IMG/VR virus record: IMGVR_UViG_3300034378_000186
Location: 1-64,000 of that record
Source of the DNA: a virus
DNA: 64,000 bases
Strand: one strand, 5' to 3'
Under the pieces are notes generated by a model. It did no database searches, had not been told where the DNA came from, and saw nothing but the letters and a program-made list of their open reading frames with translations. The position numbers were made by a program, and so were the translations under genes. This document shows, in pieces, positions 3,855 to 36,463 of the stretch (the first letter of the stretch is position 1; each line of letters opens with the position of its first letter).

Positions 3855-3898
3855 ATATAAATGTTATATGTCAGATTGAAAAATTTTTATTATATTTA
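3855..3898 (+). promoter_or_regulatory. palindrome ATATAA-N3-TTATAT upstream of TATATTTA box
   Basis: ATATAAATGTTATAT 3855-3869; TATATTTA 3891-3898. Confidence 0.5.
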
Positions 3899-5826: not shown

Positions 5827-5861
5827 GAGGGGTTCTAAGCGGTTGGAATCCCTCTTTTTTT
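5827..5861 (+). terminator. intrinsic terminator
   Basis: GAGGGGTTCTAA-GCGG-TTGGAATCCCTC followed by T-run. Confidence 0.8.
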
Positions 5862-5914: not shown

Positions 5915-5967
5915 ACATATAATTTTTATATATAAAGAAAAATTAGTATATTTGTAATGGATATTAA
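5915..5967 (+). promoter_or_regulatory. conserved promoter: palindrome plus Bacteroidota -7 box
   Basis: ATATAATTTTTATAT at 5917, TATATTTG at 5947; near-identical block at 15809. Confidence 0.75.
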
Positions 5968-5992
5968 TATTAACAATTTAAAACAATACAAA

Positions 5993-6589
5993 ATGGAAAC
6001 TTTAGTTGGTTTATGGTGTAATTTATTCAGAGCTATTGAAATAGCTAAAACAGGTGAATATTCGATTTCAATTTATTTTGACCAAGAATATAAAAAGGGG
6101 TTTGACGATTATAGGTCAATCAAGGCATTCTGTAAGGGTTGGTTTGATAAATTTGTTTCAGATGGTGATATAAAGATAGAGATTGTGAAGCCACAGTCTT
6201 ATGAACAAAAAAGTAAATATGAAACTTTAGAAGATATTTCACTAAGAGTAGAAAAATCTTTACAATTCCAAAAACCAGAATTAAACCTATGTAATGCTTC
6301 TGAATCTTTATTAGAAACAACTACTCAAAGATTAGATTTATCACTTTCACAAGTTGAAAAGATAAAACAAATAGCTGCTACCATTGCACAGATGGATTTT
6401 TCTGAAACTATACAAGCACAACACATAGCTGAATCAATTCAGTATTCATTTATGTATAACGATACGGGTTATAATGCAGAAGAGGAGTCTATAATGTTTG
6501 GGGACATGATTCAGATAAAATTAGGTAAAATAGACAGCGAAACGATTAAATCGGCTATTGATTATCTCAACGGGGTGCTGCTGTCTTAA
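5993..6589 (+). CDS. ComM/YifB (Mg-chelatase-related)-like protein lacking the ATPase core
   Basis: FRAIEIAKTG; DIKIEIVKP; RLDLS..KIKQIAATIA..SETIQAQHIAESIQY; no Walker A/B. Confidence 0.65.
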   Translation: METLVGLWCNLFRAIEIAKTGEYSISIYFDQEYKKGFDDYRSIKAFCKGWFDKFVSDGDIKIEIVKPQSYEQKSKYETLEDISLRVEKSLQFQKPELNLCNASESLLETTTQRLDLSLSQVEKIKQIAATIAQMDFSETIQAQHIAESIQYSFMYNDTGYNAEEESIMFGDMIQIKLGKIDSETIKSAIDYLNGVLLS

Positions 6590-6648: not shown

Positions 6649-6948
6649 ATGAAAAAATCATTTATAATATTAATAGGTCTGCTCTTGGGGTTGGGATTAT
6701 CAGCTCAGGAACCACCTCAGATCATATCTGAGACTGACACAACACTTACCTATATAAATCAGGATGGTGATACATTAACTGTTCAAACTTGGAGTCAAAA
6801 GGATAATCCAGGAATTGATTATAAGGAGTTCTATTCAGGTACTCCTGTTGATACAGTTATATTATATCATAATATTACCCCTGTTAAATATATGGAAAGT
6901 TATAGAGAAAAAGAACAGGAGGAAGATCCTGGAAATTCCGATTATTAG
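6649..6948 (+). CDS. secreted hypothetical protein
   Basis: Signal peptide MKKSFIILIGLLLGLGLSA-Q. Confidence 0.7.
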   Translation: MKKSFIILIGLLLGLGLSAQEPPQIISETDTTLTYINQDGDTLTVQTWSQKDNPGIDYKEFYSGTPVDTVILYHNITPVKYMESYREKEQEEDPGNSDY

Positions 6949-6969
6949 AAACCAATAAAACATACAATA

Positions 6970-7341
6970 ATGGAAACAACAGAAATTATTCAAAGGAAAG
7001 AAAATTTTAAACAGGTTTGTGTATGGCCTGGAACTACAATGGGAGATTCAAAACCTGAAGAATTTGAAGAATTTTTTATGGAAAATTTTGAAACCAGAAC
7101 TCAATTTTTGGAAGAGGTTACTACACTTCCTGATAGAAATGAGATGGGGGATATAATCCCTGAAACAGGAGGAAGGATTGATATTTTATTTGCAGTCCAT
7201 GATGAAGACATTTCTAAATTTTCAGTCAGTAGGCTTTCAATGGGTATTAGATGGATTGAAGATGCTGTTTCAAACATTAATAATCCAAATGGGATTATAT
7301 ATGATGAAAGGATTCTTCAATATAAAGAATGGGAGGCTTAA
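6970..7341 (+). CDS. hypothetical phage protein
   Basis: ORF in operon. Confidence 0.75.
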   Translation: METTEIIQRKENFKQVCVWPGTTMGDSKPEEFEEFFMENFETRTQFLEEVTTLPDRNEMGDIIPETGGRIDILFAVHDEDISKFSVSRLSMGIRWIEDAVSNINNPNGIIYDERILQYKEWEA

Positions 7342-7343
7342 AA

Positions 7344-7535
7344 ATGAATATATATGATTACATAAAAGCCATGGAGGTAATTCTCCAGGATAACAGGCTG
7401 ACAGATGCTCAAAAGGTTGATAATGTGAAGGCCTTAATCAAAAGGGTACCTGCAGAAAATCATGAAAGAAAATGTGAAGAGGAAATCCCTACCCAAACAA
7501 AGGAAGGGTTTGATCTCAGGTTTTTAAAGAATTAA
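7344..7535 (+). CDS. hypothetical protein
   Basis: ORF in operon. Confidence 0.6.
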   Translation: MNIYDYIKAMEVILQDNRLTDAQKVDNVKALIKRVPAENHERKCEEEIPTQTKEGFDLRFLKN

Positions 7536-7548
7536 ATTTTTACTATTA

Positions 7549-7776
7549 ATGAAAAAGAAATTAGAACTATTAGGAAAGTTATCAAGGGAAACTCAATATG
7601 CGAGTTTCCAACTTTCTTGTTTAAAAAATGGTAAATGGAAGATATATTTTCCTAATATGGTTTATGGTAATAATTTAGAAGGGGATGATTCAGAAGAGGT
7701 AATTGATAGAGCTATTAATTTCCTTAAAAAGAAAAGACATAAAACAACTTCATTTGAAAAACAATATTCCCTATGA
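7549..7776 (+). CDS. hypothetical protein
   Basis: ORF in operon. Confidence 0.65.
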   Translation: MKKKLELLGKLSRETQYASFQLSCLKNGKWKIYFPNMVYGNNLEGDDSEEVIDRAINFLKKKRHKTTSFEKQYSL

Positions 7777-8006
7777 ATGTAAAATATAAATATGTTCGGT
7801 TAAAGAGTTTTGATTCTATTGTGATATTTCCTGAGGTAATATAGCATAAAAGAATGAAATATCTGGGAGAAATTATTTCTGCAGGATTTTGTTATATAGG
7901 AGAAAAGGGTGTAGAATGTTTTGGAGAAAGTGTTTCACTTGGGTTACCTTCAAATCCGGAAGAGGATAGCAAATTAGCAACAAGGCAATTTTTTAAACAT
8001 TATTAA
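7773..8006 (+). pseudogene. small phage gene with one in-frame TAG (7842-7844)
   Basis: ATGA overlap with upstream stop; IVIFPEVI*HK..ISAGFC..CFGESVSLGL reads as one frame filling the gap. Confidence 0.75.
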
Positions 8007-8009
8007 TAT

Positions 8010-8552
8010 ATGGAAACAATTAATTTAATTTCATGTCATCATTGTTCAACAGGAACACAATTTTCATTTAAAAATATTTTGAGTGCCCTGAATAATCCAA
8101 ATAAATCCTTTTCATATGAATTGGCTGGATTATCAGGTGAAAAGATGAATAGAAATATAATAGTGGATAGAGTTAATATTGGAGCTGTTATTCAAATTCA
8201 TGGAGAAAATCTTGAATTAGATAATACTATATTCAAAAAGAAAGATCCAGGATTAAGAGATGTATGGTTTTTGAATGAAAAATGTATTGTTCAGTTTATG
8301 AAGTATCCCCAGGGAAGAACTGCAATTTTACTCAGGGTGAAAGAAACAGGTGAACCAATGGCAAAAGCTACTATTAATATTCCTTATGAGAAACAGGAAG
8401 AGGGTGAAGTATTCATTAAGGATTATTCTGAGAATGAGGGAATGGTGAAAGCTTTATATGAGTCAGGGATTATTGATATACCTCATAGATATATAAATAA
8501 CGGAAGAACTGAAATCCCGGTTTGTAAATTAAAAGTAAAACCTCAAGTATAA
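8010..8552 (+). CDS. hypothetical phage protein (DUF4313-like C-terminus)
   Basis: ATINIP..GEVFIKDYSENEGMVKAL..GII. Confidence 0.55.
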   Translation: METINLISCHHCSTGTQFSFKNILSALNNPNKSFSYELAGLSGEKMNRNIIVDRVNIGAVIQIHGENLELDNTIFKKKDPGLRDVWFLNEKCIVQFMKYPQGRTAILLRVKETGEPMAKATINIPYEKQEEGEVFIKDYSENEGMVKALYESGIIDIPHRYINNGRTEIPVCKLKVKPQV

Positions 8553-8806
8553 TGGAAGGAAAGAATTTTAGAGATGGTGTAATACAGAGTTCGCCAATTG
8601 ATGGTTTTTACAAGTACAATAAGTTTAAAACTTCAAAAGAGGCTGCAAAGCATATTAAGAATTTTAGAACTAAAGAAATTGCTGCTATTGAAATGAAAAT
8701 TCAAAAGTTAAGAAAAAAGCAAGAATGGTTGGTTAAAACAAAGCCTGTATTAACTGATATTGTTGGTACGTATGAACAAATTGAAAAAGCAGGAAAGTCA
8801 TGGTAA
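8552..8806 (+). CDS. hypothetical protein
   Basis: ORF, coupled. Confidence 0.65.
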   Translation: MEGKNFRDGVIQSSPIDGFYKYNKFKTSKEAAKHIKNFRTKEIAAIEMKIQKLRKKQEWLVKTKPVLTDIVGTYEQIEKAGKSW

Positions 8807-9003
8807 TATTTTTGATTATATTTGGAGTAGTTTTATTGGTGGGATTAATTATAAGGGGTTTAAATAGGTTCAGAAAAGATAATCCTGGTTACTTCTGCCC
8901 ATTTTATAAAAATGATGGATGCTTACATGTTGATGGGTATTTATGTGATATAAATGATTGTTCAATTTTAAAAAAATACAGTGATGTTAAAAATTTATTA
9001 TGA
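8800..9003 (+). CDS. small membrane protein with Cys-rich tail
   Basis: N-terminal TM; CPF..C.HVDG..C...C. Confidence 0.6.
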   Translation: MVIFLIIFGVVLLVGLIIRGLNRFRKDNPGYFCPFYKNDGCLHVDGYLCDINDCSILKKYSDVKNLL

Positions 9004-9322
9004 ACGGAGCTATGTTAGAATATAAAGCAAAGTGGAACGGAGTTAATATTCTAAAGATCGGAAGGTTTGAACCCAGCTCGAAGCAATGTTCAAACTGTGG
9101 ATACCTCAATAAAAAATTAACACTAAAAGACCGTAAATGGACTTGTCCTGAATGCGGTTTTGTTCTTAATCGTGATGTTAATGCTTCCATAAATATTAAA
9201 AACTTTGCTTTAAACAACCATTTGTGTACGGAACATACACTTAAAAATCATGGTACGTTGTCTTCGTTGGAAGGAGCTTTGACCCATGAAGCCCACCGAT
9301 CTTTAGTCGGTGGGTAGTTCAC
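9002..9322 (+). mobile_element. tnpB: internally deleted IS200/IS605 element: LE stub, tnpB 3' fragment, omegaRNA, RE
   Basis: TTAT|GAACGGAGC joined to MLEYKA..PSSKQC..NRDVNAS; ends GGGTAGTTCAC. Confidence 0.85.
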
Positions 9323-34487: not shown

Positions 34488-36395
34488 ATGCTTAAAGGAT
34501 TAAAATATCGCATTTACCCAACCAACTCACAAAAAGAGTTAATAGCCAAACATATTGGTAGTAGTCGTTTTGTGTATAACCTTGCATTAGAAACAAAAAA
34601 TACAGCATATTTAGGTTCTAAACATAACTTTTCTCCTTTTGATTTAATTAAGCAACTATCTGAACTTAAAAAAGAATATCCTTGGCTTAAAGAGGTTAAT
34701 AGCCAATCTTTACAGCAAGCTATCCAAAATATGGATATTGCTTTTAAGAAATTCTTTAAAGGGGCTGGTTTTCCTAAATTCAAGTCAAAGCATAGAGGAA
34801 AACAATCTTTTTCTATTCCACAAAATGTAATAGTAGAAAATGAAAAGTTAATTATTCCTAAATTCAAGGAAGGAATCGAAATTGTTTTGCACAGACCTAT
34901 TGAAGGAACAATCAAAAGTGCAACTATTAGTATTACTTCAACAGGGAAATACTTTGTTTCAATATTAGTTGAAACCAGTAAAGAGAAACCAAGTAAAGCA
35001 CCTATTAAAGAAAAAACAACTATTGGTATTAAGTTAGGCGTATTCCCAAATATGTTTTCTACAAATAATTTTTCCGTTAGCCCATTGGCTAATAGACGAT
35101 GCGGAACTTCCAGTTCCTCTACTGGCAGCAGTGCAACTCTCCCAAACAGCAATGATTTCTCCTGTTTCCTTGCTTCTTTGAATGACTTTCTTCTTGGAAG
35201 CCGCCCAAGCAGCTTGATGCAGTTTGGATATATGCTCGGCACTACGTTTTGCCCCCTTATTGGCTTTAGATATTTTTCTTCTTGTTTCAGCAGAGTGCGT
35301 TTTTCCAAAAAAGCCATTAAATTCTCCAACTCTGGTTTTAGCGCGGTTAGAAATAGCAGCACATTCGGATTGAGTTCTTTTTCTCCCCAAAGTGCTTCTA
35401 TGGGGTACGGTGCAAATATTATAGCCGAATTTCTTTTCGTTACTCCTAAAGAAGGAAATCCAAAAGCATTCTCTATCTTGAAGGCTTGCGTAATCCTCGA
35501 CAACTTCGATGATTTGGAAATCAAAAGCATCCCATCCGTACTTAGCAATAGCCTTGTAAAATGGAAAGTTGCTTTGCAAGTTCCTTTTTCTTCTGTGTTC
35601 AGCAAATCTAAGTTTGATATTGACGGATTGCCCAATGTAGCATTTACCGTTGATTGTGTTTCTGAAGATGTAAACTCCAGATACAGATGGGATGTCTTTG
35701 AACCTTGTTTGCATATTGCAAAGATACAAAAAGAAAACGATTTAAAACCTAATTGTTCAAAAAAAGACTTAGGAATAAAATCGTTTTTAGTTACTTCTGA
35801 TGGAGAAGAAATTGATAATCCCAAATACTTACGAAAAGCACAGAGTAGATTAAAATATGTACAACGTAAATATTCAAATAACAAAGGCAAGCGCACTAAG
35901 AAAAAACTTGCTAAGCTACACGAAAAAGTAGCTAACCAAAGAAAAGATTTTCTACATAAAACCTCAACTAAACTGATTCGTGAGAACCAAACGATAGCCA
36001 TTGAGGATTTAGCGGTTGCTAACATGGTCAAGAACCATAATCTTGCACAGGCAATTAGTGATGTTAGTTGGTCAACCTTTGTTTCAATGTTGGAATACAA
36101 AGCTGATTGGTATGGTAAAAATATCTTACAAATAGGACGTTTTGCACCATCATCAAAGACTTGTTCTTGCTGTGGGTATATCAATAAAGAACTAACACTA
36201 AAAGACCGTGAATGGACTTGTCCTAAGTGTAATTCTGTACTTGACCGTGATGTGAATGCTGCTGTTAACATTAAATCATTTGCATTAAAAAATATCTTAT
36301 CTGGAACGGATAGGAAAACTCGGAACGAACTGCCTCGGTTACGAGGAGTGTTGACTTCCGAAGCCCAACCCATCGGCTCTGCCGTGGGTGGGTAG
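34488..36395 (+). CDS. tnpB: TnpB with a 245-codon in-frame insertion directly before RuvC-I Asp (probably inactive)
   Basis: KTTIGI [735 nt] DLGIKSFLVTSDG; IAIEDL; DRDVNAA. Confidence 0.85.
   Translation: MLKGLKYRIYPTNSQKELIAKHIGSSRFVYNLALETKNTAYLGSKHNFSPFDLIKQLSELKKEYPWLKEVNSQSLQQAIQNMDIAFKKFFKGAGFPKFKSKHRGKQSFSIPQNVIVENEKLIIPKFKEGIEIVLHRPIEGTIKSATISITSTGKYFVSILVETSKEKPSKAPIKEKTTIGIKLGVFPNMFSTNNFSVSPLANRRCGTSSSSTGSSATLPNSNDFSCFLASLNDFLLGSRPSSLMQFGYMLGTTFCPLIGFRYFSSCFSRVRFSKKAIKFSNSGFSAVRNSSTFGLSSFSPQSASMGYGANIIAEFLFVTPKEGNPKAFSILKACVILDNFDDLEIKSIPSVLSNSLVKWKVALQVPFSSVFSKSKFDIDGLPNVAFTVDCVSEDVNSRYRWDVFEPCLHIAKIQKENDLKPNCSKKDLGIKSFLVTSDGEEIDNPKYLRKAQSRLKYVQRKYSNNKGKRTKKKLAKLHEKVANQRKDFLHKTSTKLIRENQTIAIEDLAVANMVKNHNLAQAISDVSWSTFVSMLEYKADWYGKNILQIGRFAPSSKTCSCCGYINKELTLKDREWTCPKCNSVLDRDVNAAVNIKSFALKNILSGTDRKTRNELPRLRGVLTSEAQPIGSAVGG
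35034..35714 (-). CDS. GIY-YIG homing-type endonuclease with NUMOD3/NUMOD1-like DNA-binding motifs
   Basis: SGVYIF.N.INGKCYIGQS.N...RF..H; GYN; FFGKTHSAETRRKIS. Confidence 0.92.
   Translation of the reverse strand: MQTRFKDIPSVSGVYIFRNTINGKCYIGQSVNIKLRFAEHRRKRNLQSNFPFYKAIAKYGWDAFDFQIIEVVEDYASLQDRECFWISFFRSNEKKFGYNICTVPHRSTLGRKRTQSECAAISNRAKTRVGEFNGFFGKTHSAETRRKISKANKGAKRSAEHISKLHQAAWAASKKKVIQRSKETGEIIAVWESCTAASRGTGSSASSISQWANGKIICRKHIWEYA
35719..35726 (-). promoter_or_regulatory. Bacteroidota -7 box for GIY-YIG gene
   Basis: TATCTTTG 4 nt before ATG. Confidence 0.7.
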
Positions 36396-36463
36396 TTCAC
36401 TGAACGTAGGGTTTCAGATGCAGTTTAGGATTAAAAAAAATAAATCTAATTCTTAATTAAAAG

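Follow-up and report, generated by a model that had tools for sequence, protein, structure and literature searches.

The stretch of DNA analysed here (64,000 nucleotides, hereafter the window) is a tailed-phage genome segment and part of an 80.8-kb IMG/VR record, estimated to be 73% complete, with about 31% G+C. Genes for a portal (10950), a major head protein (23148), a baseplate wedge (50207), a large terminase (59945) and a DnaB-like helicase (61684) were located in the window, in which neither tRNAs nor Rfam families were found. The structural genes were myovirus-like and no integrase was seen in the phage, which on these grounds looks virulent.

An open reading frame on the plus strand, from position 5957 to 6589, contains the coding sequence of a 198 aa protein that we refer to as mini-ComM. 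In 44 close homologues (40-100% identity), nearly all of them 198 aa long, the first methionine corresponded to the codon at 5993. In addition, the 3' end of a TATATTTG box lies at 5955, 2 bases ahead of the upstream ATG of the open reading frame, so that transcription most likely starts downstream of that ATG. Based on the position of the box and the homologue starts, we took 5993-6589 as the likely coding sequence, in agreement with the coordinates given by a sequence-only reading of this DNA, which had described a miniaturized ComM/YifB-like protein at this locus. The features of the locus are as follows (window coordinates).

5827-5854, with a T-run to 5864, plus strand: terminator-like hairpin (12-bp stem with 5 GC pairs, followed by TTTTTTT), closing the upstream transcription unit
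5915-5955, plus strand: repeated promoter-like motif ACATATAATTTTTATATAT..TATATTTG, ending in TATATTTG; identified by its recurrence in the window
5993-6589, plus strand: mini-ComM gene, 198 aa plus stop codon; identified by the homologue start methionine and a dN/dS of 0.06-0.2
6005-6091, plus strand: residues 5-33, ComM pre-Walker helix alpha0 (RAIEIAKTG) and strand beta1; identified by hhalign, with a predicted helix at 9-21 and a predicted strand at 25-30
6092-6166, plus strand: residues 34-58, a 25-residue bridge (loop, helix 36-47, loop); delimited by alignment boundaries and predicted structure
6167-6451, plus strand: residues 59-153, strand beta5 (DIKIEI) and the four-helix ComM lid (Mg_chelatase_C); identified by PF13335, PDB profile and hhalign
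6461-6586, plus strand: residues 157-198, an extra small domain predicted to comprise three short strands and a helix (model pLDDT 60-80), absent from ComM

The promoter-like motif consists of ACATATAATTTTTATATAT, a spacer and TATATTTG (about 40 nt in all), and four copies were found ahead of plus-strand genes, at 3867, 5915, 15809 and 56237. With the hairpin and then the motif upstream of it, mini-ComM is indeed, as had been proposed from the letters, the first gene after a conserved promoter. It is also the first of a run of small same-strand open reading frames (6649-9003) forming a promoter-driven operon, and no terminator was found 3' of the gene. The product of the next gene (6649-6948) has 99 residues, carries at its N-terminus a signal-peptide-like segment that ends in SAQ, and may be a secreted protein or lipoprotein of the operon. 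From general promoter knowledge, we take TATATTTG to be a Bacteroidota-type -7 box (TAnnTTTG), and this box indicates that the host is probably a member of the Bacteroidota, an assignment that applies to the window phage only. A box of this type was present ahead of 3 of 14 family genes, as compared with about 1.4 expected, and the transposase of the window reached a best identity of only 57-60% when compared with 401 Bacteroidota genomes.

Elements of ComM kept and lost

Mini-ComM matched the Pfam family PF13335 (Mg_chelatase_C, the ComM/YifB lid) with an E value of 5.6e-9 and 36.9 bits (cut-off, 26), and 9 of the 10 other family members scanned also scored above the cut-off. It remained below the cut-offs of TIGR00368 (26.8 vs 362.4 bits) and NF007365 (20.8 vs 530 bits), and the NCBIfam YifB models matched it through their last ~80 positions only. 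When a profile of 24 family sequences was compared with the PDB, the best match was Legionella ComM (8RXD, E 6e-4). We also performed hhalign against 13 bacterial ComM sequences, drawn from the species-genome scan described below and numbered according to the Polaribacter protein, which aligned residues 59-153 with ComM 386-503 at 99.1% probability (E 1.9e-18, 39% identity). The N-terminus alone aligned from residue 10 to 26 with ComM 202-218 (E 3e-4), while a profile of 51 sequences placed residues 5-33 on ComM 197-225 (83% probability, E 9e-6) in a collinear arrangement. These residues correspond to VKGQ..KRALEIAAAGGHN..GPPGS of ComM, that is, to helix alpha0, strand beta1 and the start of the P-loop. 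Thus, the ComM-like segments that had been picked out from the letters, and in order, are real and collinear, as judged from PF13335, the PDB profile match and the hhalign alignments of both lid and N-terminus.

Between these two segments, the bridge of residues 34-58 stands for about 160 residues of ComM (226-385), comprising the Walker A Lys/Thr, the helix-2 insert, Walker B, the pre-sensor-1 hairpin, the Cys-rich zinc insert and sensor 1. The loop after beta1 carries no glycine-rich motif where the P-loop is expected, and the Walker A motif [AG]x4GK[ST] was found in none of 190 family proteins, which confirms that the ATPase core had correctly been called absent. Since the protein starts where the AAA+ module of ComM starts (ComM residue ~193), the ~190-residue Lon-like domain is gone as well, and no Pfam match to it (Lon-protease-like ChlI, PF13541) was obtained in mini-ComM. 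We then considered the residues to which a role has been assigned in the structure of Legionella pneumophila ComM (PMC11612176). The position of the adenine-contacting K195 is occupied by G6 and that of the trans-acting R463 (LSAR) by S119 (LSLS), which is variable within the family, while R316 and E302 fall in the deleted part. The deletion, together with G6 and S119, means that the ATP site is lost on both sides and that neither DNA-binding loop is left, and the remaining parts are the adjacent edge strands beta1 and beta5, two helices and the four-helix lid. At the C-terminus, a tail of about 40 residues is present in approximately two-thirds of the members, and the short forms without it (~150-170 aa) end near residue 155.

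As compared with ComM/YifB (TIGR00368; L. pneumophila 8RXD/8RXT; V. cholerae ComM), mini-ComM retains alpha0, beta1, beta5 and the whole lid, the latter 39% identical to the ComM profile and equally placed with respect to the sheet. In contrast, it lacks the P-loop and the other elements replaced by the bridge, the Lon-like N-domain and the trans-acting Arg, has 198 residues instead of ~510 and carries an additional 40-residue C-terminal domain. Since mini-ComM has none of the defining features of ComM except the lid, it is not a ComM/YifB; it belongs to a separate, new family of ComM-derived pseudo-ATPases.

The AlphaFold2 model of the 198-aa protein (pLDDT 88, pTM 0.80) had ComM as its best Foldseek match. 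When aligned with ComM 8RXT_A using VIA-align, it gave a Z score of 11.5 and an rmsd of 2.5 Å over 148 residues, model residues 1-156 spanning ComM 191-500, while MCM, BchI and RavA gave Z scores of 9-10. A second model was built for a member of an independent short-form subfamily (154 aa, ~30% identical), which is predicted to fold alone with a pLDDT of 94.4. Compared with all 48,161 PDB representatives without a Foldseek prefilter, this model also had ComM as its first match (Z 10.4, rmsd 2.6, 149 of 154 residues), followed by BchI (9.8), MCM (~9) and RavA (8.7), with BchI, MCMs and RavA ranging from 8.4 to 9.8. Full-length alignment was confined to relatives with a ComM/MCM/BchI-type lid placement, while other AAA+ clades aligned through the lid only (55-60 residues), indicating that, in both the lid itself and its placement on the remnant sheet, the protein follows the ComM/MCM/BchI clade. 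In the predicted models, as in the profile comparisons, ComM was clearly matched; the lack of such a match would have refuted the sequence-only reading. The remnant alpha/beta elements and the lid superpose in the arrangement of the ComM/MCM/BchI/RavA clade.

Selection, family size and genomic surroundings

To evaluate selection on the gene, we calculated dN/dS by the pairwise Nei-Gojobori method for 21 pairs with 68-89% amino-acid identity and obtained values of 0.06-0.2. When 1.84 billion cluster representatives were searched exhaustively with the family profile, 91 clusters (50% identity) matched at E<=1e-30 and 316 at E<=1e-10; the best 150 were all 75-278 aa long. The large internal and N-terminal deletions with respect to ComM might be expected of a decaying, functionless remnant of a captured comM gene, and in a related 23-kb viral contig (L004, 5956-6135) the gene is reduced to 59 codons of its N-terminal part, with 81% identity over 36 residues. 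Nevertheless, the strong purifying selection and the hundreds of intact clusters of uniform length exclude neutral decay, the outcome that would have overturned the sequence-only reading, and the AlphaFold models are confident and compact; the probability that we leave to such a remnant is close to nil. The fragment in L004 represents a loss of the mini-ComM gene in one lineage. As judged from sequence comparisons and predicted structures, mini-ComM is a functional, ATPase-dead protein derived from ComM.

Conservation was evaluated in 51 diverse members (28-53% identity), in which R13, E16 and A18 of alpha0 and A110, I131, A132, H144, A146, E147 and Y151 of the lid were near-invariant. D39, which lies in the bridge and thus in the former P-loop region, is family-specific and nearly invariant, and Y33 and Y40 in the same region are conserved. 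In AAA+ sites, alpha0, beta1 and the lid surround the adenine base. That these adenine-pocket elements are kept, and that D39, Y33 and Y40 sit where the P-loop used to be, would suit a small-molecule binder or sponge, in which alpha0, beta1 and the lid hold a nucleotide-like ligand without hydrolysing it. However, there is no phosphate-binding loop and the adenine-contacting Lys of ComM is not kept, and we consider this function very unlikely.

The family was then sought in other collections. When 185,579 bacterial species genomes were scanned with a pattern, full-length ComM genes, matched over residues ~57-151, were the only hits and no short form was obtained, nor was any short form present in the cultured-phage collection INPHARED. 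Two weak INPHARED matches were rejected, since they proved to be ordinary full-length ComM on an unverified 'phage' scaffold. PHROGs gave no match below E 0.03, the ESM Atlas no usable match to mini-ComM, and BFVD a single weak match, to a full-length phage ComM-like protein. Longer homologues were absent at E<=1e-5 in a search weakened by crowding from chance word matches. Mini-ComM therefore represents a large, undescribed family that is found only in viral and metagenomic DNA.

Neighbouring genes were not conserved across 18 viral and metagenomic loci. We also compared the 81-kb window phage with two complete related viral records, one of 75 kb and one of a 324-kb jumbo phage. Mini-ComM (46-70% identity) was the sole well-conserved protein common to these three otherwise unrelated genomes, the rest of their common content being transposon-type genes and weak matches only. 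In all three, the gene is oriented inward at a distance of 1-6 kb from one of the contig ends, a placement that is suggestive of an early region.

Where large neighbours were present they were often replication genes, none of them constant across loci. PolA and a VapE-like primase-helicase lie upstream of mini-ComM at L087, topoisomerase II lies upstream at L094, an upstream SNF2 helicase and a downstream DnaG-like gene flank it at L097, and an SNF2 helicase is a neighbour at L003. In the SNF2-type helicase gene just upstream at L097 (282-3017), the SNF2 domain encloses a LAGLIDADG domain, which probably represents an intein or the insertion of a homing endonuclease. AAA+ lids are docking platforms, and the structural matches of the second model include lid-chaperone complexes of proteasomal ATPases. 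Together with the adjacent replication genes, this raises the alternative of an exapted scaffold, in which the stable fold would serve as an adaptor for a replication protein of the phage or the host (helicase, primase or polymerase) and have no connection to the function of ComM. On the other hand, no replication gene co-occurs consistently with the family, and the three large genomes have no replication protein in common, the SNF2 helicase being present in two of them. Moreover, the window gene is located among small open reading frames ahead of the structural module, with ~55 kb between it and the DnaB-like helicase, and a strikingly ComM-specific lid signature (HIAEAIQY, LLKTA..RL.LS) is kept at 39% identity. 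We regard the scaffold as rather unlikely, although it is the main rival to the explanation given below, the ligand binder and a defence decoy being lesser ones.

Possible function of mini-ComM

Since mini-ComM has no ATP hydrolysis, no arginine finger and no DNA-binding loops, it must work by binding, possibly to host ComM or its partners. A role in DNA binding was judged improbable, given the loss of the pore loops and the acidity of the protein (pI 4.65 and net charge -11 for the window protein; family median pI 5.5). No phage partner is conserved, the family is restricted to viruses and the gene has spread laterally among unrelated phages, making a host target the more economical assumption. 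In agreement with this, the virus-only distribution, the spread among unrelated phages and the position in an early operon fit a host-directed factor.

Within the ComM ring, R463 is provided to the ATP of one subunit by the lid of the next (PMC11612176), and the winged helix of DprA docks on the Mg-chelatase domain of ComM, recruiting it (PMC12012524). The parts kept by mini-ComM are those known to make protein contacts in ComM. We propose that mini-ComM would act early in infection as a stoichiometric binding module, offering the contacts normally made by the ComM lid and the alpha0 face. Its partner would be the neighbouring ComM protomer across the nucleotide site, or DprA, and it is the identity of this partner that we infer. 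The resulting complex could neither hydrolyse ATP nor grip DNA, and the ComM-dependent branch migration of the host would be blocked or diverted. To this reading, a subunit mimic that occupies ComM/DprA contacts and gives a dead complex, we assign a probability of about 0.38; the dominant-negative subunit mimic suggested by the sequence-only reading is thus supported in part. Its more general form, that phages of many lineages carry a minimal ComM-subunit mimic capping or poisoning the host ComM ring or titrating DprA, we hold to be doubtful.

Several observations argue against a subunit mimic. The Lon-like domain, which is part of the ComM ring interface (PMC11612176), is missing, and the residues in common with ComM may simply hold the fold together. 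The replication-gene neighbours fit a role in the DNA metabolism of the phage itself equally well. In addition, since the phage looks virulent, the usual rationale for attacking comM, escape from curing by transformation, applies poorly to it. When the complex of mini-ComM with the C-terminal winged-helix part of a stand-in Flavobacterium DprA (residues 296-366) was predicted, the score was 0.07 (mark, 0.32), a result that counts neither for nor against the mimic. Neither the window phage nor any of three related viral records contained a DprA gene (PF02481).

The sequence-only reading had also offered an anti-defence decoy. Such a decoy would be directed not at ComM itself but at a host defence or stress protein with a ComM-like AAA+ module, such as a BREX BrxL-type or another MCM-clade ATPase. 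A small, acidic, horizontally mobile and virus-only protein encoded in an early operon is typical of counter-defence genes, and BrxL was among the structural matches of the second model, albeit low in the list (Z 5.4). This proposal was not supported, as PADLOC gave no match to mini-ComM, ComM resembles BrxL through the Lon-like domain only, which is absent here, and the sequence signature is specifically that of ComM/YifB. We consider the decoy improbable.

A precedent for the subunit mimic is found in magnesium chelatase-type proteins of the same AAA+ clade. The N-terminal AAA+-like module of BchD/ChlD is an ATPase-inactive paralogue that works by binding the active BchI/ChlI ring, and it illustrates how a dead relative can act by association. 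However, the AAA+ fold of BchD is still of full size and BchD is a cellular subunit of the very enzyme to which it binds, whereas mini-ComM is drastically reduced and phage-borne.

ComM/YifB is nearly universal in bacteria, and because comM is disabled so often, ComM has been proposed to help bacteria to shed mobile elements. Mobile elements disable comM repeatedly, either by insertion, as in the case of AbaR islands and prophages, or through the plasmid sRNA RocRp (PMC12378983, PMC11441513). If the mimic reading holds, mini-ComM would affect the same pathway, ComM-dependent recombination. The known cases act on the gene or the mRNA, whereas a protein inhibitor of ComM, such as a mimic of its subunit, is absent from the mechanisms listed in a review of conflicts between mobile elements and competence (PMC12378983), so the mimic, if true, would be a new mode of attack. 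It would then also be the first case of a protein that inhibits the branch-migration step in bacterial recombination or transformation, and ComM would matter during phage infection. In this large, strongly constrained and virus-only family, ComM has been cut to its protein-contact parts and catalysis has been discarded, which makes it a probe for the role of ComM beyond transformation. The partner of mini-ComM would reveal either a new way in which phages shut down a host recombination motor or a new role of AAA+ lids, as portable modules for binding. The protein also shows, in a natural case, how strongly an AAA+ domain can be shortened without losing its predicted ability to fold.

Transposon-type genes of the window phage

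At the start of the window, a TnpB-type gene is apparently split into an OrfB_IS605 N-terminal part (43-813) and a Cas12f1-like TNB zinc-ribbon part (1884-2246). The two halves are separated by a 349-aa open reading frame (816-1865), the C-terminus of which resembles phage endonuclease I/DUF1064, and a nuclease gene may have been inserted into TnpB at 43-2246. A 635-aa open reading frame (34488-36395) matched Bacteroidota TnpB-like transposases of ~380-400 aa through residues 2-185 and 427-602 alone, and this split match points to an in-frame insert of ~240 residues; a 628-aa antisense open reading frame (34514-36400) overlies the same stretch. Finally, a 105-aa open reading frame (9000-9317) corresponds to a stand-alone C-terminal fragment of TnpB with a CxxC...CxxC zinc ribbon, and it is 56% identical to part of the TnpB encoded by the 324-kb phage.
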